From Cyanobacteriota bacterium (lineage in GTDB: Bacteria; Cyanobacteriota; Cyanobacteriia; PCC-6307; Cyanobiaceae), in the NCBI GenBank assembly GCA_046052125.1, contig JBJOMY010000004.1:64001-128000 (forward strand): 64,000 nucleotides of DNA, in the 5' to 3' direction. The translations under genes and the position numbers were made by a program. Positions 1 to 41,402 of the stretch are shown here, one piece after another (the stretch's first letter is position 1; each line of letters starts with the position of its first letter). The notes under the pieces were generated by a model. That model did not search any database and was not told the origin of the DNA. It worked only from the letters and a program-made list of their open reading frames with translations.

Positions 1-766
<766 letters not shown>

Positions 767-11204: not shown

Positions 11205-11797
11205 CAGCGGGGCGTGCGGGAGGGCTCTTGCCCCAGGCCGTAGAGATTGTGCTTGACCAGTTCGGCCCAGAGCGCGGCTGGCACCTGTTCGGGGCTCGGG
11301 TGGCGGCGGATCGCTGAACTGGCGGTGGCGGGTACCGGCAGGTGCACCAGTTCTATCTGGCCCCCCAGCGCTTCGATCGTTGCCAGGGCCTTGGGATCCA
11401 GCGGGAATCCCTGGCGGGGCACCACCGCCAGCCGGCAGTGCTGCAACAGCTCCGCCGCTCGATACCAGCTGGGCACTTGAGCGGCCAGATCACCCCCCAC
11501 CACGAACACCAACGCGTGGCCGGGCCAGAGCTCGGCGGCGCGGGTCACGGTGTCCAGGGCGCGGGGGCTGCTGAGCGCCTGGCGATGGTGGATGCGCGGA
11601 TCAGCGAGGTCTTGCACCAGCGCCTCGAGCAGCTGGGCGCGCACGGCCAGGGGAGCACCGTGCTGTTTCAAGGGGTTGTCACTGGCCCAGGTCACCACCT
11701 GGCCGTAGTGCTCTGCTAATCCCGCCAGCAGGGCGCGATGTCCTTCGGTGGGCGGATCGGCACTGGTGCCCAGCAGCGCCAGGGTGGGCTGGCTCAT
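11204..11797 (-). CDS. nadD: Nicotinate-nucleotide adenylyltransferase
   Basis: LGTSADPPTEGH (cyanobacterial HxGH variant), SDNPLK, ASSAIR; ATGA overlap at 11794-11797. Confidence 0.93.
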   Translation of the reverse strand: MSQPTLALLGTSADPPTEGHRALLAGLAEHYGQVVTWASDNPLKQHGAPLAVRAQLLEALVQDLADPRIHHRQALSSPRALDTVTRAAELWPGHALVFVVGGDLAAQVPSWYRAAELLQHCRLAVVPRQGFPLDPKALATIEALGGQIELVHLPVPATASSAIRRHPSPEQVPAALWAELVKHNLYGLGQEPSRTPR

Positions 11798-13152
11798 GGC
11801 AGCAGCGGCTTCAGGGTTTGCGGCCTGGCTTCCAGCTCCCGCCACTGCTGCAGCCAGGAGCGCGCCTGGGGATCCTGCTGCGCGAGGCGGCGCAGCAGCG
11901 AGGCCGGCCGCAACCGCCCCCGTTCAGCACTCCGCAGCAGTTCGGCTGCAGCCAGCCGGCCCGTGAGCCGGGTGGTGTGCACCGCCAGCGCCGCCTGGGC
12001 GAGGGCCACCGGTGCGGCGGGGGCCAAACTCAGCCCACCGCTGAAGGGAGCAGCCAGCGTCAGCACCTGGCGCAGCCCCCCCAGCAAGAGCTGAATCCCC
12101 AGCTGGGTGCCGCCGAGCAGAGCGTTCTGGGCCGAGAGGCGCGTGAGCAGGGCCCGGGCCCCGCCACCGCCGAGTTCCAGCCCGTAGAGATCGCAGAGCT
12201 GCACCACCAGCGCTGTATCGAGGGCCAGGCCGCCGGCCAAATCCAAGAGCAGCAAGGGATTGGCGGCTACGCCGGTGGCCTTGAGAGCGGCGTAGCGCCC
12301 GATCAGGGCCTGGGCGCCCTCGCGGCCGCGCCGCAGCCGCCACTGATGCAGCCGCTGGGCGAAGCGATCGGCTGCCCGCAGCCCGTTCAGCCCCAGGAGC
12401 AGGGCGCCGTGCTGCTCCAGCAGATCGATCAAGGCCTGGCGCAGCGGTGCCACCTGGGGGGGCATCGGTTCACTGCGCACGCGCCCGTCATCCAGCACCA
12501 AGGCGCGCCGAGGGGCTGAGGCCACCGCCAACAGTTCCAGGTGCCGTGCCGCGGCAGGAAGACGGCGGCGAATGCTGGTGATCAGCGCGTCGCGTTCGCC
12601 CTGGGGCCAGCAATCGATGCGGTTGAGCACCAGCAGCACCGGTTTGCCGGCCGCCAGCAGTTGCTCGAGGGCTTCCGCCTCTGGGGTGGTGAGATCGCTG
12701 TCGAGCACCAGCAGCACCAGATCGGCACCGATGGCCACGCGCGCGGCCAGCCGTTGCCGAGCTCGAGCCGCGATTTCATCGATGCCAGGGGTATCCACCA
12801 GGTCCACCCCCGCGAGCCCGCGGATGGCGACGTCCCAGGGCTGGCGCTGTTGGTGGCGGGTGCAGCCATGGGCCACGTCGGTGGCGAAGGCGGCTTGGCC
12901 CAGCAGGGCATTGAGCAGGCTGGATTTGCCTACGCCCACGCGGCCGAACACAGCAACCCGCAGTCGCCGCTGATGCAGCGCCAACAGCTGTTGATCGAGG
13001 GCCTGCAGCTCAGGACTCAGCGCACTGCGCTCGCGATCGCTCAGCCGCAGCCCACTGCGCCACTCGCCCAGCAGCAGCTCGCAACGCTCAGCAGTGGAGG
13101 GTTGGCGCAAGGGCGGCGGTGGGTACGCCATGCATTGAAGCGGTTGTGCCAT
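11794..13152 (-). CDS. Era-like GTP-binding protein with DUF697 C-terminal domain (start uncertain: 13132/13152/13167)
   Basis: GRVGVGKSS, DTPG, NRID G-motifs; VAANPLLLLD C-terminal region. Confidence 0.88.
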   Translation of the reverse strand: MAQPLQCMAYPPPPLRQPSTAERCELLLGEWRSGLRLSDRERSALSPELQALDQQLLALHQRRLRVAVFGRVGVGKSSLLNALLGQAAFATDVAHGCTRHQQRQPWDVAIRGLAGVDLVDTPGIDEIAARARQRLAARVAIGADLVLLVLDSDLTTPEAEALEQLLAAGKPVLLVLNRIDCWPQGERDALITSIRRRLPAAARHLELLAVASAPRRALVLDDGRVRSEPMPPQVAPLRQALIDLLEQHGALLLGLNGLRAADRFAQRLHQWRLRRGREGAQALIGRYAALKATGVAANPLLLLDLAGGLALDTALVVQLCDLYGLELGGGGARALLTRLSAQNALLGGTQLGIQLLLGGLRQVLTLAAPFSGGLSLAPAAPVALAQAALAVHTTRLTGRLAAAELLRSAERGRLRPASLLRRLAQQDPQARSWLQQWRELEARPQTLKPLLP

Positions 13153-13178
13153 CGTCGCGCTCAGCACCGCTCACCCCC

Positions 13179-15840: not shown

Positions 15841-15867
15841 GAGCTCCCTCACGGGAGCTTTTTTATT
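15841..15867 (+). terminator. Rho-independent terminator of ycf65
   Basis: GAGCTCCC-TCAC-GGGAGCTT followed by T tract. Confidence 0.85.
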
Positions 15868-15901: not shown

Positions 15902-16876
15902 CTACTGCCGCCCCCGCATCACCTGGCCGAAGCTGCTGCCGGTGATCAGGGCGGGGTTGGTGGCGGTGTCAACGGTGAAGCTGCGGGATTCGCTCTGGCT
16001 GGTGCCGTCGGGGTACACAAAGGTCACCAACCCCTCCAGGGTCACAACGGAACCGTTGCGGCCCGTTTCCTGGAGTTGGTCCACGCTGACCCGTTGAAAC
16101 TGGCGGAAGAAGGCCGGATCGAACTGGTCGGCTGCTTCGCCGCTGAACCGTTGGCGAGCCGCCTGTATGTTGCCCATCGAGAGCTCGTTGTAGAGCTGCT
16201 CCACGCTGCTCACCGCTTGGGCGCCTGCCGTATCGGTGCTCCCGAGTCCGAGCTCCGGGGCTGGTGGGGTCTCTGTTCTGGGGGCCTGTGGCTCGGGTGT
16301 TGCGGTGGTGCCGTTCAGCCCAGGGAAGCCAGTGTTGCTCGGACCGGCCGTGGGTTGATTGGTTTGAAGCAGCAGCCAGGCCAGGCCGCCGCCCACGCCC
16401 ACCACCAACACACCGGCGATGAAGCTGAGCACCGCCACCAAACCGCCGCTGCCGTTTCCTTCCTGCGCCGGTTCTGAGTCGTCGTCCTGGTCTTGAGCGG
16501 GAAGAGGAGCTGCGGGCGGTTCGGGGCTTGCGGCAGCCGTGGGTGGTTGGATCCGGCTTGTTTCGCTGAGCCCGAGCAGGCCTCTCAGCACCGCATCCAT
16601 GCGTTCGCAGATTGGTGCCGCGAACACCTGGTTGAGTTCCTGCTGCAACCGCAATTGCAGCCGTTGATCGGCAGCCAAGGGTGGCTGCTGGGCCGTCGCG
16701 CTGCTGAAGGCTGGTGTCATCACCAGGTATTTGAGGGCTGGCAGCAGGGCCAGCTGGCTGTTGCCGCAGAAGTCGCCCACGAGGGCCTGCAGCCGGCGCC
16801 CATCACTCGCCAGGCCCCGCTCCAGGTCAGCCAGGATCTGCCGGCGCAGGTTGGCTCCGAGGTCGTAATCGTTCAC
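15902..16876 (-). CDS. Single-pass membrane protein: ~100-aa helical N-domain, Pro-rich linker, TM helix, C-terminal possibly NTF2-like domain
   Basis: GTG at 16876 overlaps the PP2C stop (GTGA); TM LVAVLSFIAGVLVVGVGGGLAWLLL; C-terminal helix-helix-beta pattern. Confidence 0.8.
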   Translation of the reverse strand: MNDYDLGANLRRQILADLERGLASDGRRLQALVGDFCGNSQLALLPALKYLVMTPAFSSATAQQPPLAADQRLQLRLQQELNQVFAAPICERMDAVLRGLLGLSETSRIQPPTAAASPEPPAAPLPAQDQDDDSEPAQEGNGSGGLVAVLSFIAGVLVVGVGGGLAWLLLQTNQPTAGPSNTGFPGLNGTTATPEPQAPRTETPPAPELGLGSTDTAGAQAVSSVEQLYNELSMGNIQAARQRFSGEAADQFDPAFFRQFQRVSVDQLQETGRNGSVVTLEGLVTFVYPDGTSQSESRSFTVDTATNPALITGSSFGQVMRGRQ

Positions 16877-18099
16877 GGCTTCACAGGCGCAGCGCCAGGC
16901 GTTGCAGGTGCAGGCATCTTGCCCTTTGTTGGCGGTTGGGGTGAGCGGGCCAGCTGCCATTGCAGGGCCAGTTCCTGGCGCAGCCTTGGGCAGCTCTTTA
17001 GCGAGTCTGATGGGCTGGCGGCAATCAGGGCCCCCAGGGGATCGATGGCCACGCGCTCGCGGAGCAGCGCCGCGGCTTGGGGCTGTTCCAGCAGTTGTCT
17101 GAACTGGGCTCGGCGTTGGCTGAGGCTTGAGCGGATCTGCTCGGGTTGGCCGCAAAGCGCCTGCACCTGAGCCTCCAGAGGTGAGGGGCGGCGCAGCACA
17201 AGCCAGCTTCCCAGGCCCAGCAGGCCGCCGAGCACCAGCAGAACGGCGATGGGGCCGGCGTGTCGCCAGCCCATCCCTGGGCGGGAGGGGCGCTCCTCAG
17301 GGCCGTTCGCCAGGGAGCAGATCGCCAGTGAGACGTCGTCGCCACTGCCGTCTCGGGTGATCTGTGCCAGTCCCCGTTCCAGCTCGGCGCTGTCCTCCAG
17401 ATCCACCACCCCGGCGCAGAGGGCCAGGAAGTCGACATCGGTGGCGCAGGATTTGCGCACCCCATCGGTGCTCAGCACCAGGGCCCGCAGCGTCTGGTTC
17501 GCCTCCAGTAGCTGCAGCTGGGCGCGCGGCTGCCAGCACTGCTGATCCGGCGCTTGGCAGAGGCTGCCAGTGGCCTCACTACCGCTGTGCTCTGTCTCCT
17601 CGCTGAGGAGCCAGGCTTGCCCCTGCCCATCCACGCCGGCGAGATCCCAGTCGCCGATGCCGCTGCAGGCCCACCAGCGCGGCGCCAGTAGGGCCAACCC
17701 CAGGGTGCTGCCGTAGCTGAGAGCGGAAAACGGTTGCACGCTGGCCTCGGGGCGCTGCTGCCAGTCGGCTTCGATCGCTTGCAGCCATTGGGCCTGGATG
17801 CGGGCTGGTAGATCGCTGTTCAGTCGTTGCCGCCAGCGCTCCGCCTGGTTCAGGGGCGTGTCCTTCAGCAGGTCGCTCACCACCTGCTGCGCCACGGCGC
17901 AGGCCAGGGCGCTGCCCCGGTGGCTCAGGTGGTAACGGCTGCCGCCGTGGCCATCGGCCACGGCCATCAGTTGCAGGCTGTCGTTCCCCGAGTGGAGGGT
18001 GATGCCGAGGCTGGCGTCCTGGCAGGGTTTGTTCTGGCGCTGGTGGGCAGCACCGATCACACTGCACACCCGCGCCGGCCGCCAGTTGCCGCTCACCAC
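16873..18099 (-). CDS. PP2C-family Ser/Thr phosphatase (TerY-P type) with C-terminal TM and extracytoplasmic domain
   Basis: SVIGAAHQRQNKPCQDA, AVADGHGG, IGD, STDGV, GSGDDVS; TM IAVLLVLGGLLGLGSWLVL. Confidence 0.92.
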   Translation of the reverse strand: MVSGNWRPARVCSVIGAAHQRQNKPCQDASLGITLHSGNDSLQLMAVADGHGGSRYHLSHRGSALACAVAQQVVSDLLKDTPLNQAERWRQRLNSDLPARIQAQWLQAIEADWQQRPEASVQPFSALSYGSTLGLALLAPRWWACSGIGDWDLAGVDGQGQAWLLSEETEHSGSEATGSLCQAPDQQCWQPRAQLQLLEANQTLRALVLSTDGVRKSCATDVDFLALCAGVVDLEDSAELERGLAQITRDGSGDDVSLAICSLANGPEERPSRPGMGWRHAGPIAVLLVLGGLLGLGSWLVLRRPSPLEAQVQALCGQPEQIRSSLSQRRAQFRQLLEQPQAAALLRERVAIDPLGALIAASPSDSLKSCPRLRQELALQWQLARSPQPPTKGKMPAPATPGAAPVKP

Positions 18100-18836
18100 A
18101 CCAGCGGGCCGACGTCATCGCTCGGATCCAGCAGGGTGGGAGGAAGATCCGGCAGGTGGATGTTGCTGCCGCTTTCTGGGCTGGGTTCTCCCGCCGGTGC
18201 CACGCGGCTGGCCGGCATGGATGCCGCACCCACCACGGCCGTGGAGGCCCACTGGATGTATTGCGCCAGGGTGGTGGCGTTACTGGCCTGCAGCGGCCGC
18301 CGTGGCGATTTGCTGCGCCCGCTTGGTTCCGGGCCGATGAACTGCTGCAGCACCTCCAGATCCGCGTCATGGCCCATGGCGATCGCCAGGCGCACCGCCT
18401 TTTGGGCCCAGGGACGGCGCATCAGGTTCGCCAGGCCCGCTTCGAAGTCGTCGGTGGGTTGGCCATCGGAGATCAGCACCAGCACCGGTGGGAGCGCCCG
18501 CTCTTCCATGGGCGGCGACTGCAGCGCCTCGGCCACGAGGTTCAGCGCATCGCCCATGGCGGTGATGCCTCCGGCCTCGAGGTCGCGCCACTGCAGCTGC
18601 TGCACTGGTGTGGGCTCCGCCAGGTGCCAGGCCGCCTGATCGGCAAAGCGCACGGCCCGCACCAGCACGCGCGCCTCAGGGTTTTCGCGGGCCACCTCAG
18701 CCATGCCCGGCAGCGACTGGCGGATGGCCTGATTCAGCGCCTGCATCTTCCCCTGGGCGGCCATCGAGCCGGAGCAGTCGCAGAGATAGATGAAGTGCAG
18801 CGGCCGGTTGCTGAGCCGAACGTTGGGGAAGGCCAT
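18093..18836 (-). CDS. terY: vWA-domain protein, TerY family
   Basis: MIDAS DCSGSM, GGITAMG, LISDGQPTD; lies between kinase and PP2C. Confidence 0.88.
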   Translation of the reverse strand: MAFPNVRLSNRPLHFIYLCDCSGSMAAQGKMQALNQAIRQSLPGMAEVARENPEARVLVRAVRFADQAAWHLAEPTPVQQLQWRDLEAGGITAMGDALNLVAEALQSPPMEERALPPVLVLISDGQPTDDFEAGLANLMRRPWAQKAVRLAIAMGHDADLEVLQQFIGPEPSGRSKSPRRPLQASNATTLAQYIQWASTAVVGAASMPASRVAPAGEPSPESGSNIHLPDLPPTLLDPSDDVGPLVW

Positions 18837-18839
18837 GGC

Positions 18840-20174
18840 TTAGGGGCGCAGCACCAGGATGGGCCCGGCGCTGCTGTTGAGCTGCTGCAGGGCCGAGAGA
18901 TTACAGGTTTTGCCTGGGGCCAGCTCGATGTGCTGCCCTGTGCGTGTCGATCCGTGCCAGGTGCTGGAGGTGAGGTTCTGCAAGCCCAGCAGGCTCGGAT
19001 CGCTGGGATGAGCCACCAGCCTGGCGAGCGGCGTTGCGATCGCCTCCCCCAGCAGCGGATCGAAGTGGTGGGGGTGCAGTTCGTTGCCGGCCGCCGCCGT
19101 GACCCGCCCGTGGGGCAGCTGCAGCTGCAGCGCTGCCGGTAGCGGAGTGCCGCAGCTCCAGCAGCTCCCTGGGCCCTCGGGGTTGGGAAAGGTTTCCTGG
19201 CCGCAGTGGCCGCACAGTTGCCGTTGATCGAGGCAGTGGCTGATCGCCTGCTTCCACTGGCCGGTGAGGGTGCGCTGCTCCGGGTTGCGCAGGCCGGGCC
19301 CGAAGCTCTGCACAAACAGCCGTTGCAGCGCTTCGGGGTAGATCGGCCAGGTGATCAGCGCTGCACTGTGCTCGATCGGATCGGGCCGGTTGGCGGGGTT
19401 GTGGGGATCGAAGATGAACAGCGCCCCTTCTCCGTAGATCCGGCGGCGGGCTGGTTCATCCAGGCAGCGAATCGCCAGTTCTCGCTGGCCGCGAAACGGA
19501 TCGTGGCGCGTCAGCAGCCGGAAGAGCAGCACCGCCAGGGAGAACAAATCGCTGCCGGTGCTCGGTCTGGCCTGGCCGAGCAGCACCTCCGGAGCCATGA
19601 ATCCAGGGGTGCCGAGCACGCTTCCCTGGCCCTGCCCGTCGATATCCACGTTGTCGTTGTCGCAGATCAGGATGCGGCCGCTGCTGTGCTCGAGGAACAG
19701 GTTGCCTAAGGAAATGTCCTTGTAGCAAAGGCCTTTGAGGTGCAGCTGGTGGAAGGCTTCCGCCAGGTGAAAGCAAGCCCGCAGCACGCTCTGCAGGCTG
19801 ATCTCCAGCTCACCGCCAGCGTGCTGATGGGCACCCACGAAGCCGCCGGGCCGCAGGCCCATCAGGTAGCCGAAGCCCGTTTGAGGGCCCTGAATGAGGC
19901 GCTGGCTGTCGGCGCTGGCTGAAAGCACCGCCAGCGGCCAGAGGAAATCGGCGTTCGGTGCCCCCAGGCGAATGCTCTGCTGCAGCCTTGAGCGCAGCTG
20001 CGGATCCCTGGCGATGCACGCCGGGAAGTACCACTTCAAGGCCAGTCGCTCGCCCGCCAGCTTCACCGCATACACCTGGCCCTGGCTGCCTCCTCCGAGG
20101 CCCTGCTCAATCAGCAGTGGCTGCTCCAGGCCTTCGAACTGCAGGCTTGAGCCTTCCGGGAGCAACCAGTTCAT
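18840..20174 (-). CDS. Ser/Thr protein kinase (TerY-P type) with Zn ribbon and C-terminal beta domain
   Basis: GGGSQGQVY, ALKWY, CYKDISLGN, CDNDN, GTPGFMAPE, SDLFSLAV; CGHC...CWSC. Confidence 0.93.
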   Translation of the reverse strand: MNWLLPEGSSLQFEGLEQPLLIEQGLGGGSQGQVYAVKLAGERLALKWYFPACIARDPQLRSRLQQSIRLGAPNADFLWPLAVLSASADSQRLIQGPQTGFGYLMGLRPGGFVGAHQHAGGELEISLQSVLRACFHLAEAFHQLHLKGLCYKDISLGNLFLEHSSGRILICDNDNVDIDGQGQGSVLGTPGFMAPEVLLGQARPSTGSDLFSLAVLLFRLLTRHDPFRGQRELAIRCLDEPARRRIYGEGALFIFDPHNPANRPDPIEHSAALITWPIYPEALQRLFVQSFGPGLRNPEQRTLTGQWKQAISHCLDQRQLCGHCGQETFPNPEGPGSCWSCGTPLPAALQLQLPHGRVTAAAGNELHPHHFDPLLGEAIATPLARLVAHPSDPSLLGLQNLTSSTWHGSTRTGQHIELAPGKTCNLSALQQLNSSAGPILVLRP

Positions 20175-20890
20175 GCCGGGGCGGTGCTGTCCTGGCCGAT
20201 GGCCTGACGGATGCCATTGCGATGCGCGAGGGCCGTGCGGCGGTTGGCGAAGCCATGGCGGAGGGCACGGCCATCACGCAGCACCAACACCAAGTTGTGC
20301 TCCTTGCGGGAGCCCAGCAGGATCCAGCCAGCCAGGGCTCCCGCCTGTAGCGGCCAGAACAGCAGCGGGAACGGCAGTAGCAAGAGGCCACCCAGGCAGA
20401 GCAGCAGCCACCAACTGAAGATGTGGGGATGCTGAGGCAGGCTTTGCACGGCCGCCGAGCGGATCTCGGCGATGGCCACTTGGCGCTCGCCCACGCTGAT
20501 GCTGCGCGGAGCGCTGGCTGAAGGAGGCGCGCTCGCGCGGGGCGCCTGGCTTGGCTTGGGAGCAGCTGGCTCAGGGCTGGCGCTGCACTCGAACACCAGC
20601 ACCGGACCGTTGCGCCCCAGCCGAATCTCATCGCCATCCTCGAGCCGGCGGCACTGACGGACTTGCTTGCCCTCGAGGAAGGTGCCATCGCTGCTCTGCC
20701 AGTCGCACACCAGCCAGCCCTGGCTGCGCGAGAAGCGCACCACGGCGTGGTGATCGGAGACCCCCTCGAGGCTGGCCAGGCAGAGGCGGTTGGCCGCAGC
20801 GCGCCCGATCGTGAGCGGCTGAGCCGGATCCAGCGGTGCCACCTTGCGGCGATCGCTGGCCAGCAGGAGCCGGGCGCTCGGGCTGCTCAT
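20171..20890 (-). CDS. FHA-domain membrane protein
   Basis: LTIGR...VSDHHA...SSDGTF FHA signature; Pro/Ala linker; hydrophobic hairpin near the C-terminus. Confidence 0.9.
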   Translation of the reverse strand: MSSPSARLLLASDRRKVAPLDPAQPLTIGRAAANRLCLASLEGVSDHHAVVRFSRSQGWLVCDWQSSDGTFLEGKQVRQCRRLEDGDEIRLGRNGPVLVFECSASPEPAAPKPSQAPRASAPPSASAPRSISVGERQVAIAEIRSAAVQSLPQHPHIFSWWLLLCLGGLLLLPFPLLFWPLQAGALAGWILLGSRKEHNLVLVLRDGRALRHGFANRRTALAHRNGIRQAIGQDSTAPA

Positions 20891-21162
20891 GGTTCACCCC
20901 GGCGGCGGCGCCACCACAGGCGCCAGTCGTCGCGGAGGTCGTTCCACCAGCCGCCATCACCCTCGCGGTAGGGCACCACACGGCCAGGAAAGAGCAGCGC
21001 TTTGCTGGCTAGGGCCAATGCAATGAGCACCATCACCAGCAGCACCCAGCCAGGGATGGCCCCCACCCAGGTGGCGGCGAAGAACGCCCGAATTGCATAC
21101 AGCCCGATCGTTAACGCCAGCCACAGCCGGAAGGGTTCCCAGGGGTCCCGCTGGCGCAGCAA
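20887..21162 (-). CDS. Small two-TM membrane protein
   Basis: Two hydrophobic segments, basic W/R-rich tail; stop overlaps the FHA gene ATG (ATGA). Confidence 0.7.
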   Translation of the reverse strand: MLRQRDPWEPFRLWLALTIGLYAIRAFFAATWVGAIPGWVLLVMVLIALALASKALLFPGRVVPYREGDGGWWNDLRDDWRLWWRRRRGEP

Positions 21163-21251
21163 CGATCCGCTTGAAGGCTGGCCGTAGCCTATGGCCGGGC
21201 TGCAACACCCGCCTGGTTACCCCTTCTCAGCTCGAATACCTGAAGGCGCGC

Positions 21252-23483
21252 TTGGCCTCGGAGGAGGTGCGTCAGGCCTGGCGTGCGTTGGCCAAGGCGG
21301 CGCTGCAAGGACCCTGGCGGCAGCGGCCAGCGGCCATCACCCAGGCCTGGCAACCGCTGCGCGCCCATCAGGCCAGCGTGGAGCTCTGGGCCGGCGGCCA
21401 GAAGCTCACCGAGCTGGCGCTCGAACCCCAGCGCTACAGGCTGGGCCGCGATCCTTCCTGCGATTTGCCCCTGGCGGAAGCCGGCTTGAGCCGTGTGCAC
21501 GCCATCCTCGAGAAGCAGCGCCCGAGCGATCGCGAGTTCGCGCTCGAAGATTTCAACTCCGCCAATGGGCTGTTCCACCGTGACCGCCGGATTCGCTGGA
21601 TTCAGCTCCGCGATGGCGATGCGGTGCGACTGGGCTCTCCCCTCAAGGGCGAGGCACCGGAGCTGCGCTATCGCCACCCCCGCAGCCCGCTGGAGCAGGC
21701 GGTGCATCTATTGGGTGTTGCAGCCCTAGCTGGATCCACGCTGTTGGTGAGCGGCATGCTCGTGGCGGCGAGCATCGGCGGCGGTTCGAAGATCCGCTCC
21801 ATCTCGGGCCCGGTGAAGATCTTTTCGGCCGACCGCCGCCAGATCGATGCCAAAGAGGGATCCTCTACGGCTCTTCCCTCGCTGCAGTCGTATCCCCTGC
21901 ATCTGCGCCAGGCGCTGATGGCTTCCGAGGAAGCTCGCTTTGGCTGGAACAGCGGCATCGATCTGTTTGGCACGCTGCGCTCAGCTCTGCTGGGTACAGG
22001 CGGCGGCAGTGGCCTCACTCAACAGGTGGCCCGGATGGTGTATCCGGAGGTGGGTCGAGATCTGAGCCTCACGCGCAAGTTGCGGGAGCTTTGGGTGGCG
22101 CTGCAGCTGGAGGTGGGCTTCAGCAAAAACCGGATCCTCAAGCTTTACCTCGATCGCGCTTACCTCGGCCTGGGCAGTGAGGGGTTTGAGCAGGCCTCGC
22201 AGCTGTATTTCCGCAAATCAGCCAGCGATCTCGATGTGGGTCAGGCGGCGTTTCTCGTGGGCCTGCTGCCCAGTCCCAATGGCTACAGCCCCTGCAATCC
22301 AGAGGATCCCGGCGCCGGCCTGGAACGGCGCAATCTGGTGCTCAAGCTGATGCATGAGCAGGGTTGGCTCAGCGATCAGGCCCTGATCGATGCGCAGCGG
22401 CGCCCACTCAACATCGATCCCTCAGCCTGCCGCGAATCCACCTTCAGCAGCTATCCCTTCTTCAGTGATTACGTGCTGGGGGAGCTCGAAGGCACACGCT
22501 TTGGGCTTGATCTCAGCAGTGCTGATGCCGATGGCAATTACGCCGTGGTCAGCACGATCAACCCCCGCTTGCAGCAGCTGGCGCAGGATCAGCTCAAGCG
22601 CTTTCTCGAAGGGCCAGCCGCTGCAGCCGGGTTGAGCCAGGGAGCCCTGATCACGGTGAACACCGAAACCGGCGACATCGTGGCCTACGTGGGTGGGGGC
22701 GACTACAGCCGCTCCAGCTTTGATCGGGTGCAGGCGCTCCGCCAACCCGGCTCCACGTTCAAGCTCTTCCCCTATCTGGCGGCCTTGGCGGCCGGGGCCT
22801 CACCCGCTGATCCGATCTCCTGTGCGCCGCTGGCCTATGTCGCGGGTTGCCGTCACGGCGGCGGCAGCACCTCCATGGCGGATGGCCTGGCCTTCTCGGA
22901 AAACGTGGTGGCCTTGCGCTTGGCGGAGCGGGCCGGGTTCTCAGCGGTGCTCAAGATGGCGCGTCGCCTCGGCATCTCCACACCGCTGGACGCCGACTAC
23001 AACACCATGCTGGGTGGGCGCGAAACCTATCTCTACGAGCTGGCCCGGGCCTACGCGGTGGTGGCCAACGGCGGCCGTTCCGTGCCGATGCACGGTGTCA
23101 GCCGGATCTACGACCTGGGGATCTGTGGCTCGATCAAAAGCCTGGAGACCTGCCCGGAGCGTGGCGTAACCGTGCCGATTGGCGAGCAGTCGCGCCAGCT
23201 GATCAGCCCAGAGGTGGCGGCCAGCATGGATGAGCTGCTCGCTGGGGTGGTGCAGCGCGGCACAGGCCGTGCCGCAGCCCTGGTGCCCGATGCCCGCGGT
23301 AAGACCGGCACCACCAACAACGGCGTGGATGTGTTGTTTGTGGGCTACTCCCCAGCCAGCAAACTGCTCACGGCGATCTGGATGGGCAACGACGACAACA
23401 CTCCGGCTCAGGCCGCCAGTGGCGCTTTGGTGGCTGATTTGTGGGGGCGTTACATGCAGCAGGCCCCTACAGCAGCTCCTTGA
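21252..23483 (+). CDS. Class A penicillin-binding protein with N-terminal FHA domain (start uncertain: CTG 21213 / TTG 21252 / GTG 21267; frame open from 21093)
   Basis: FHA LGR..SRVHA..SANG; TM; transglycosylase SEEARF, GSGLTQQ, RKLRE; transpeptidase STFK, SEN, KTGT. Confidence 0.93.
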   Translation: MASEEVRQAWRALAKAALQGPWRQRPAAITQAWQPLRAHQASVELWAGGQKLTELALEPQRYRLGRDPSCDLPLAEAGLSRVHAILEKQRPSDREFALEDFNSANGLFHRDRRIRWIQLRDGDAVRLGSPLKGEAPELRYRHPRSPLEQAVHLLGVAALAGSTLLVSGMLVAASIGGGSKIRSISGPVKIFSADRRQIDAKEGSSTALPSLQSYPLHLRQALMASEEARFGWNSGIDLFGTLRSALLGTGGGSGLTQQVARMVYPEVGRDLSLTRKLRELWVALQLEVGFSKNRILKLYLDRAYLGLGSEGFEQASQLYFRKSASDLDVGQAAFLVGLLPSPNGYSPCNPEDPGAGLERRNLVLKLMHEQGWLSDQALIDAQRRPLNIDPSACRESTFSSYPFFSDYVLGELEGTRFGLDLSSADADGNYAVVSTINPRLQQLAQDQLKRFLEGPAAAAGLSQGALITVNTETGDIVAYVGGGDYSRSSFDRVQALRQPGSTFKLFPYLAALAAGASPADPISCAPLAYVAGCRHGGGSTSMADGLAFSENVVALRLAERAGFSAVLKMARRLGISTPLDADYNTMLGGRETYLYELARAYAVVANGGRSVPMHGVSRIYDLGICGSIKSLETCPERGVTVPIGEQSRQLISPEVAASMDELLAGVVQRGTGRAAALVPDARGKTGTTNNGVDVLFVGYSPASKLLTAIWMGNDDNTPAQAASGALVADLWGRYMQQAPTAAP

Positions 23484-24582
23484 TCCTGGTGACCAGGGCC
23501 CAACCCAGTCCGAGCAGCAGACCCCACCCCCAGCAGCTGCTCAGCAGCCGTTGCCACGGGGTGGTTGGCTCCTGCGGATCGAGCCGCGGCAGTTGCCATC
23601 CCAGTTGCAGCGCCCCGTAGACCAGCAGCAGCACCCAGGCTGGGATTTCCAGCCCAACGCTCTCGAAGCTGAACGCACGCCAGTGCAGCAGGCTCAACCC
23701 CGCCGCCAGGGCGATCAAGGCGCTGATCGCTCCCGATGCACCACTCCAGACCCGCAGGACGCCCCAACGACTGGCGCCCAGGGCGGCCAGTCCAAGGCAG
23801 GCCAGGGCTGTGAGGCTGTAGCGCAGGATCACGGCGCCCAGCGGCAGGGGTGAGTTGCCCAGCAGGATGAGCAACAGCGTCAGGTTGAGGCTGGCTTCAA
23901 GCCCATTGCGGTGGATCCAGGCCTGGCTCAGCCATTGCCAGGCCTGGCGCGGCAGGCCGGCTTCATCGCTTGCCAGGGGCCAATGGCGCTTCAGTTGTTT
24001 CAGCGGCCCCAACGCCAGGGCTTGAATCAACCCCAGAACAACCACCAGCACCACCCCACCGCTCCAGCCCCAGGCGTCGAACAGGGCTCGATCCAGCTCG
24101 GTGCCGCTCCAGGCGAACACCAGAGCGCCTGCCGCCGCTAAGGCGATACCAGGTGCGAACAGCTCCAGATCCCTGCGGATGCTCCGGGAGCGCTTGGCTG
24201 CGGCACGAGCAGAAACCGCTTCAGCGGCGCTGGCCGGCTCAGGCTCTGGTTCGGTTGGAGGCTTTGAGGGTTGGGCGCCGCCGCTCTGCCCCGTGGCGGC
24301 TTGCAGCAGATCGAGGAGCTCGTGCAGTACCGCCGGGGAGTAGGTGTTGCTGAGTTGGCTCGTGAGGCTGGCCAAGGCCGATTGCTGCGTGGCTCCCTGG
24401 CTGTGGAGTGCTTGCAGCAGCAGAGGCTGAGCCGCTAGATCGCGGATGGGCCCCCGCAGGCTGTCGTTGGCCCCGAGCGCATCCATTAGCCGGTTGGTGA
24501 GGGCCCGCGATTGACGCAGGCTGCTGGCATCCGCCACCAGCCATTGGCGCACCTGTTCCCCCAGTTCGTGGCCGACGCCCAT
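23467..24582 (-). CDS. Rhomboid-like membrane protein with N-terminal helical domain; probably catalytically inactive
   Basis: WQWLSQAWIH...N, GASGAI motif, several TMs; no His in the expected last catalytic helix. Confidence 0.75.
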   Translation of the reverse strand: MGVGHELGEQVRQWLVADASSLRQSRALTNRLMDALGANDSLRGPIRDLAAQPLLLQALHSQGATQQSALASLTSQLSNTYSPAVLHELLDLLQAATGQSGGAQPSKPPTEPEPEPASAAEAVSARAAAKRSRSIRRDLELFAPGIALAAAGALVFAWSGTELDRALFDAWGWSGGVVLVVVLGLIQALALGPLKQLKRHWPLASDEAGLPRQAWQWLSQAWIHRNGLEASLNLTLLLILLGNSPLPLGAVILRYSLTALACLGLAALGASRWGVLRVWSGASGAISALIALAAGLSLLHWRAFSFESVGLEIPAWVLLLVYGALQLGWQLPRLDPQEPTTPWQRLLSSCWGWGLLLGLGWALVTRIKELL

Positions 24583-24607: not shown

Positions 24608-24634
24608 AAAAAAGCGCCCCACAAGGGGCGCTTT
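24608..24634 (-). terminator. Rho-independent terminator of the beta-epsilon operon
   Basis: AAAAAA-GCGCCCC-ACAA-GGGGCGC on the + strand. Confidence 0.85.
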
Positions 24635-41330: not shown

Positions 41331-41402
41331 TGGGCGATACTGGAATCGAACCAGTGACTCCTACCGTGTCAAGGTAGTGCTCTACCTCTGAGCTAATCGC
41401 CC
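41331..41402 (-). tRNA. tRNA-Val(GAC)
   Basis: Reverse complement GGGCGATTAGCTCAGAGGTAGAGCACTACCTTGACACGGTAGGAGTCACTGGTTCGATTCCAGTATCGCCCA folds as a cloverleaf; anticodon GAC; CCA not encoded. Confidence 0.97.

Follow-up and report, generated by a model that had tools for sequence, protein, structure and literature searches.

A TerY-P-like kinase, phosphatase and vWA triad elaborated with FHA readers, a class A penicillin-binding protein and an apparently unnamed helical domain in freshwater picocyanobacteria

We analysed a 64,000-nucleotide window of a Cyanobiaceae genome (GCA_046052125.1, contig JBJOMY010000004.1) and confirmed eight open reading frames (ORFs) between window positions 15902 and 24582, with the strands and tight junctions given in the initial annotation. 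This block is a real, conserved and lineage-specific elaboration of a TerY-P-like triad, the genes for a vWA protein, a PP2C phosphatase and a Ser/Thr kinase being adjacent as had been proposed. The triad has an apparently unnamed fourth component, an N-terminal domain of about 100 residues that reaches beyond the picocyanobacterial lineage and for which we use the working name triad-associated helical (TAH) domain.

Six of the eight genes form a minus-strand operon in which four junctions are 4-nucleotide start/stop overlaps and the kinase and vWA genes are 3 nucleotides apart. In order of transcription, the operon encodes a small membrane protein of 91 residues without a known family (20887..21162); a protein composed of an FHA domain, a linker and a DUF6232-like membrane-inserted domain (FHA-TM, where TM stands for transmembrane; 20171..20890; PF00498, E 1e-14); a soluble, atypical Ser/Thr kinase with a zinc ribbon and a C-terminal beta-rich domain (18840..20174; PF00069); a stand-alone, YegL/TerY-like vWA protein (18093..18836; PF00092); a membrane PP2C phosphatase (PP2C-TM) with one TM helix and a small helical C-terminal domain containing two cysteines (16873..18096; PF13672, E 5e-28); and a protein that, according to its AlphaFold model, consists of TAH (residues 1-103), a Pro-rich linker, one TM helix and an NTF2-like domain (15902..16876). 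Divergent from the operon is the plus-strand gene of an FHA-TM-class A penicillin-binding protein (PBP), a block-specific paralogue (ORF 21093..23483). Convergent with the latter, and overlapping it by 17 nucleotides, is the minus-strand gene of a TAH protein with a rhomboid-fold membrane domain (23467..24582), assigned by fold match; the Rhomboid family scored just below the Pfam cut-off. The Pfam families identified in the block (PP2C_2, VWA, Pkinase, two FHA, Transgly and Transpeptidase) agree with the earlier domain calls and support the anatomy of a writer, an eraser and two readers; the first and last genes of the operon matched no Pfam family. A hydrophobic helix is present in six of the eight products, the number previously described as membrane-bound, and the protein said to have two TM helices does have a membrane helix, with a single one called at the scan threshold.

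The conservation of this arrangement was examined in the best 80 of 194 kinase loci, a selection that makes the sample lean to close relatives; two loci from other taxa (L079 and L080) were excluded from the counts, and each gene was counted only in loci with enough flanking sequence. Near the kinase we identified PP2C in 63 of 63 loci, vWA in 69 of 70, FHA-TM in 69 of 71, the small membrane protein in 68 of 70 and the PBP in 64 of 66, together with the rhomboid-like protein in 39 of 56 and the NTF2 protein in 41 of 57. Among the 44 loci that are long on both sides, 42 contain the six-gene core and 29 all eight genes. The linkage of the eight genes is far beyond chance, and the extra genes are tied to the triad as the initial annotation had supposed; the fixed set of eight that it described is instead a six-gene core accompanied by a variable set of TAH-domain membrane proteins. 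In most loci the block occupies a fixed chromosomal slot, next to atpC (29 of 49 loci) and to psrp3 (37 of 50), and these counts place a minority of blocks at another site. One kinase gene (L089:11246-12570, genome G189) seems split or frameshifted near its C-terminus, the other genes of that block being present.

Among 251 genomes of the family, 60 carry the kinase, 59 the small membrane protein and 57 the block-type FHA-PBP (E<=1e-55); because these genomes are kin, the counts do not represent independent events. The kinase is found in 16 of the 17 genomes of the genus. All 57 genomes with the block-type PBP are also kinase-positive, and two further genomes have a diverged PBP inside the block. 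The distance between atpC and psrp3 is within 0.6 kb in all five block-less genomes tested. In G076, a 100% complete genome of the same genus, the gap between these genes retains remnants of the NTF2 and FHA-TM genes (blastn E 2e-26 to 1e-9), from which it follows that a deletion removed the block and that it is dispensable. Trees were built from the 22 loci complete for 12 genes: those of the triad and of the envelope genes have 16 supported splits in common and one conflicting pair, and each of them shares 10 of 12 splits with the flanking core genes, with five conflicting pairs. The median ratio of non-synonymous to synonymous substitution rates (dN/dS) ranges from 0.18 to 0.65. Outside the family the kinase clade is rare (1 of 286 genomes of the phylum sample), and no close relatives were found in mobile elements, where viral contigs yielded only nine distant kinase matches, plasmids only two records below 40% identity, and phage a single record for vWA at 30%. 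Vulcanococcus, Cyanobium and freshwater Synechococcus are the labels borne by the nearest named loci; with cultured carriers among these loci and G076 as a block-less congener, a comparison is practical.

The TAH domain was recognised from the homology between the first 100 or so residues of the rhomboid-like and NTF2 proteins (97.6%, E 2.7e-12). The genome has no further copies, and in the predicted models of both proteins the domain adopts a confident all-helical fold. It matched no Pfam or NCBIfam family, the PDB sequence search was blank, and a fold search, for which the domain was not modelled on its own, gave no match above Z 5.5. The TAH profile detected the domain in 61 of the 251 family genomes, comprising all 60 kinase-bearing genomes and one of the 191 others (an 87%-complete genome), with one to eight copies per genome that lie mostly at block edges and in some cases elsewhere. 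A TAH gene is still nearby in two loci (L027 and L047) in which the triad lacks the PBP and FHA-TM. The family comprises 526 representatives at 50% identity, and Asp35 of the domain is nearly invariant. Of the best 150 proteins, 121 have at least 240 residues, and of these 93 have one TM helix after TAH, 23 several and 5 none; their tails fall into eight clusters and 14 singletons, including ARC6-IMS, TPR and FtsH_ext. The NTF2-like domain in the window protein is predicted to be periplasmic and has fold matches at Z of about 12 (root-mean-square deviation (rmsd) 2.4, 113 aligned residues). From these fold neighbours it may have a role in peptidoglycan binding, on which a literature search for RsgI9-NTF2 found nothing. 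The predicted complex of TAH, kinase, vWA and Mg scored 0.28 and 0.30 against a mark of 0.32 and is used neither way, and an Atlas row connecting TAH with EAD7 at 0.77 serves as a lead only.

Two loci show more elaborate arrangements. L101:10807-17318 has at least five TAH genes in tandem between PP2C and psrp3, some of them partial; the genome that contains it, G213, has eight TAH matches. L047:749-16361, labelled Prochlorococcus sp. MIT 0707, combines the triad with FHA-ABC, trypsin, trypsin-TPR, COP23 and TAH genes and an adjoining integrase; its PP2C is short and without a TM helix.

Genes with a helical N-terminal domain were also identified beside the triad or the kinase in L079 (labelled Litorilinea), L080 (labelled Chamaesiphon) and L102. 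The profile of this distant domain matched picocyanobacterial TAH at 84-89% (E about 2e-6 to 7e-6; reversed control 0.25%) and ranked the NTF2 protein of the window best among 24,457 genome ORFs (E 0.012). Both domains of that protein align with L120:8768-9931 (41%, E 3e-21; 26%, E 4e-6). The single-sequence comparison of TAH with L102 failed (0.6%), and the two are linked by profiles only. In the best 80 of 126 metagenome loci of the distant kinase clade, a TAH-type domain, a probable homologue, was detected in 50; of the 37 loci that reach 8 kb, 29 have it. In 33 of the 50 it lies within 500 nucleotides of the kinase ORF, a distance taken between stop codons, which underestimates the gaps. 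The same 80 loci contain PP2C (57), vWA (48), FHA (5), PrsW (3) and ABC (2) genes, and none contains a PBP, a rhomboid or the DUF6232-like domain of FHA-TM, so the wiring to these three proteins is lineage-specific. The proposed linkage of FHA-PBP, rhomboid and FHA-TM to triads accordingly stands for the family loci and fails for the distant clade.

Fusion partners were scanned in 53 of 67 distant TAH proteins, with near-duplicates, fragments and proteins scanned earlier excluded. They comprise WD40 (10), FGE-sulfatase (8), LRR, beta-helix and SH3 (5 each), Lcl_C and MORN (2 each) and fn3, TPR, ARC6-IMS, DUF1036 and RecG (one each); the remaining 11 had no family. By inspection, one TAH-type protein (P0291) contains a vWA domain of the triad type; within the block, TAH is not fused to the kinase, vWA or PP2C. 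FHA domains are fused to other membrane machines near the triad elsewhere (FHA-ABC in L047 and L080, FHA-PrsW in L102), which suggests that the reader machine, a PBP here, is an ABC transporter or a PrsW protease in those loci. A TAH-type domain is present in 12 of 301 phylum genomes, in one of them with the kinase clade. We also identified a TAH-type domain-RecG helicase fusion directly downstream of a kinase (L168:11363-13798), a possible DNA-processing link. The same type of domain occurs in orphan genes (L199-L201) from a distant family of the phylum, where the surrounding 14-18 kb contain no triad.

Among the triad proteins, the kinase retains Lys47, Asp153, Asn158 and Asp172 as well as the zinc-ribbon cysteines 321, 324, 338 and 341 in all 51 sequences compared, the zinc ribbon also giving a weak Pfam match. 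No TM helix, PASTA or sensor domain was found in it. An Asp-x-Asp triplet occupies the position where DFG is expected, as in YegI; the E. coli protein, according to the accessible part of its description, deviates in the same motif and yet is active (10.1101/819920). The C-terminal domain of the kinase had no Pfam or PDB sequence match, and its interpretation as a degenerate FHA domain was not supported (at most 30%). The same beta-rich domain recurs C-terminally on PrsW proteases and other multi-TM proteins of the same loci (L119:9651-15031, L120, L134, L140, L117 and L080:14959-16233), as a second unnamed repeated module. A second kinase gene is present in the locus of the triad-type kinase in L133:11399-13990, L166 and L184. 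The metal-binding Asp columns of PP2C are invariant, and in L041 an NTF2-like domain is fused directly to PP2C-TM. In the vWA protein the MIDAS residues are intact and the C-terminal Trp is invariant; its sole family match is PADLOC TerY, which is weak (37 of 48 homologues, best E 8.5e-5), and it matches 8S05 and 5A8J weakly, over the vWA domain alone. Running PADLOC on the block, as the initial annotation had advised, recovered generic kinase matches and the weak TerY match, and nothing for PP2C.

The PBP of the block differs from canonical class A enzymes in its glycosyltransferase domain. The transpeptidase motifs SxxK, SxN and KTG are kept in 64 of 65 aligned rows, as are the catalytic Glu237 and the motif III Glu290 of the glycosyltransferase; the single row that deviates at nearly every column is probably a mis-included ORF. 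Compared with the residues given as conserved in the accessible part of PMC6053601, the glycosyltransferase pocket shows three substitutions: two of them, His to Asn and Thr to Gly, occur in 64 of 65 rows and the third, Asp to Glu, in 50 of 65. Relative to the two other class A PBPs of the genome, motif IV has Asp in place of Asn and the flap is six residues shorter. We take the equivalents of the His and Thr to be essential in E. coli PBP1b. The domain remains strongly conserved, with up to 97% identity within the genus. The suggestion of a peptidoglycan synthase as output is qualified by the four changed pocket positions. Candidate starts of the PBP are 21171, 21252 and 21267; the first, if used, would lie 8 nucleotides from the start of the divergent 91-residue gene and would leave no intergenic room for either promoter. 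The genome has two Pkinase matches in all, in line with the expectation of few Hanks-type kinases, and three FHA matches. The FHA match outside the block comes from another FHA-class A PBP, 41% identical and canonical in its motifs (L081:5680-7818, G000 C1), so the fusion is not special to the block. This second gene lies directly upstream of a DUF697-like GTPase gene akin, by inspection, to window 11794-13167.

Both FHA domains, of FHA-TM and of the PBP, retain the Arg and Ser-x-x-His residues. The membrane domain of FHA-TM matched DUF6232 below the cut-off in 13 of 24 homologues (best E 1.7e-4). Homologues of the 91-residue protein start at the same codon position, with a median dN/dS of 0.22, and the Atlas yielded only unnamed cyanobacterial clusters for it. 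The rhomboid-like protein resembles GlpG (Z 12.8, rmsd 3.4, 148 aligned residues) and iRhom1 (Z 12.0), and a PDB sequence search with its alignment gave no match. The nucleophile position is Ser283 in 19 of 38 sequences, and the position expected for the His, placed by motif spacing, is Trp351 in all 38. The protein is probably a pseudoprotease that has lost the Ser-His dyad; the rhomboid-like call is upheld for the fold.

The block is flanked by psrp3 and atpC. Terminator-like hairpins mark its boundaries 3' of psrp3 on the left (15841..15860, plus strand) and 3' of atpC on the right (24611..24634, minus strand), both by consensus match only. The terminators initially placed after these core genes thus have matching hairpins, and the number of sites in the scan is not in excess (7 against 5.7 in shuffles). 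The block contains no Rfam family and no sigma-70 consensus site; an Rfam ATPC motif and a tRNA were identified outside it, at window 368-458 and 41331-41402. Contigs of four freshwater metatranscriptomes cover parts of the block and say nothing on its transcription or level.

Based on the gene linkage, domain anatomy and conserved catalytic residues described above, we propose, with a probability of about one half, that the block is a dispensable envelope-sensing Ser/Thr phospho-switch, organised like a split receptor kinase, with envelope-stress-driven wall remodelling as its output. Proteins with the TAH-TM-ectodomain architecture, here the NTF2-like one, would sense the state of the periplasm or wall, and their cytoplasmic TAH domains, acting as activators or serving as substrates, would recruit the soluble pair of kinase and vWA to the membrane. 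The membrane PP2C with its own outer domain would set the threshold. The FHA domains of FHA-TM and of the dedicated PBP would then recognise the resulting phospho-Thr marks, the TAH pseudo-rhomboid and the 91-residue protein serving as membrane scaffolds, and the output would be local peptidoglycan cross-linking or repair after envelope damage or cell contact. Binding, signalling direction, substrates and physiological trigger are what we infer in this scheme. A broader and more tentative version, which we regard as possible with the odds against it, is that the triad clade is a four-part system in at least Cyanobacteria and Chloroflexota. TAH would there be the adaptor through which interchangeable sensors (LRR, WD40, lectin-like, SH3, NTF2, pseudo-rhomboid) connect to a soluble kinase, as a bacterial counterpart of receptor-adaptor-kinase immune signalling, and in freshwater picocyanobacteria the system would have become coupled to a PBP gated by phosphorylation and to a bacterial iRhom-like pseudoprotease for rebuilding the wall under attack.

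Several observations weigh against these proposals. Six of the 44 long loci contain no TAH gene. The connection between picocyanobacterial TAH and the wider family is supported at a moderate level by sequence profiles, and the rhomboid copy joins that family only through the NTF2-protein copy (1.3% directly). Close kinase matches are missing from 11 of the 12 TAH-positive phylum genomes, and none of the five orphan TAH loci checked has a triad gene nearby. Only 23 of the 67 distant TAH proteins have a TM helix, so a focus on the envelope does not hold generally. The PBP may have an impaired glycosyltransferase, and with its pocket altered at four conserved positions a peptidoglycan synthase output is not assured.

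These observations have to be weighed together with other explanations. In an anti-phage or conflict system, the receptors would detect phage attachment or injection and the kinase would trigger dormancy or death, the PBP being accessory. The accessible part of PMC11090510 reports stand-alone antiphage action of TerY-P-like modules, the distant TAH partners (WD40, FGE-sulfatase, LRR, beta-helix, SH3) are typical recognition modules, the number of TAH genes varies from one to eight per genome, and the block is dispensable and, in L047, has its triad beside an integrase. However, Pfam identified no nuclease, helicase or other effector gene in the block, PADLOC recognised it only through the generic kinase and weak TerY matches, with none for PP2C, and the block is inherited largely vertically at a single site, with the kinase in 16 of the 17 genomes of the genus; we consider this explanation improbable. 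The PBP could also be the input, a polymerase-impaired binder of lipid II or beta-lactams that feeds wall status into the switch in the PASTA/BlaR manner. The replaced pocket residues and shortened flap in a domain that is still strongly conserved would fit such a role, whereas the retention of Glu237, Glu290 and the three transpeptidase motifs in 64 of 65 rows would not. FHA domains normally read phosphorylation, which fits a regulated target. An input role seems to us rather unlikely.

A regulator of growth, shape or colony formation, acting in normal division and not under stress, would resemble the actinobacterial pstP-rodA-pbpA-pknAB-fhaAB cluster. According to the accessible part of PMC6554272, that cluster has the same components (a PP2C in the membrane, a PBP, a kinase and two FHA proteins), and one TAH protein has an ARC6-IMS domain. 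Yet the block was not found in 191 of the 251 family genomes and is deleted in the complete genome of G076, and canonical class A PBPs exist elsewhere in the genome, which makes this role quite improbable. That the triad operon and the PBP/rhomboid pair are two unrelated units sharing an insertion site by chance is largely refuted and has very little probability left. The PBP and rhomboid genes do lie in separate transcription units, and the triad is found without both in L027 and L047. Nevertheless, the block-type PBP occurs only in kinase-positive genomes (57 of 57) and remains linked to the core also where this lies away from atpC, the rhomboid and the last gene of the operon both carry TAH, and G076 lost the whole block together. 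Should the envelope-sensing switch prove correct, it would supply the missing input for a kinase, phosphatase and vWA module of unclear signal, through a domain that is directly testable. It would also define a dedicated route from envelope sensing to peptidoglycan in abundant freshwater picocyanobacteria with very few Ser/Thr kinases, and give a bacterial inactive rhomboid a defined signalling context.

Our literature searches found no description of the block or of TAH; the domain may be mentioned in the founding 2012 TerY-P paper or its supplement. In the accessible text of PMC8195603, PP2C and TerY do not occur, and the accessible supplementary material had no match for PP2C or TerY (PMC7159879) or for Cyanobium, Vulcanococcus or penicillin (PMC11090510); PMC4810414 and PMC7517822, available in part, provide background only.

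As described in the accessible parts of PMC11090510 and PMC4978471, TerY-P combines vWA, PP2C and a kinase with zinc ribbon, and its OB-fold versions are antiphage. The block shares with TerY-P, including E. coli yegL-pphC-yegI, a stand-alone vWA, PP2C and a kinase with a zinc ribbon in one operon and, with YegI in particular, a non-canonical Mg-binding motif. In contrast to TerY-P, it adds FHA readers, a PBP, a pseudo-rhomboid and TAH receptors, and its PADLOC matches are weak. No ter, restriction, helicase, WXG/FtsK or DNA-processing genes are among the eight genes or the psrp3/atpC flanks; in the published accounts, as far as accessible, ter, restriction and DNA-processing neighbours are a common TerY-P context and no strict requirement. 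The accessible part of PMC7159879 describes in actinobacterial GAP1-N2 systems a theme of kinase with zinc ribbon and beta domain, PP2C and vWA. The block kinase, with its zinc ribbon and beta-rich domain, is likewise linked to PP2C and a stand-alone vWA, although the theme is presented there as restricted to actinobacterial GTPase systems and the block has neither GAP1 nor GTPase. The EADs of the same source are small helical N-terminal adaptors with variable partners and further genomic copies. TAH resembles them in being small, all-helical, non-enzymatic and N-terminal with variable fusion partners; it gave no match to a Pfam EAD and is not fused to a core component in the block. The actinobacterial fhaA-fhaB-pstP-rodA-pbpA-pknA-pknB cluster likewise has a membrane PP2C, two FHA proteins, a kinase, a PBP and a tie to the cell wall. 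As far as the accessible part of PMC6554272 describes it, that cluster is essential, with PASTA membrane kinases, SEDS and class B PBP proteins and no vWA, whereas the block is dispensable, its kinase is soluble and its PBP is a class A enzyme fused to FHA, so that the analogy is one of working only. The Deinococcus DRA0331-0334 operon, with which we group archaeal ArnA/ArnB for comparison, is a further analogy of this kind: according to the accessible part of its description (10.64898/2026.01.23.701218), its kinase has TM helices, its phosphatase carries KI-FHA, and PBP and TAH are absent, but like the block it unites vWA, kinase, FHA and PP2C in one operon.

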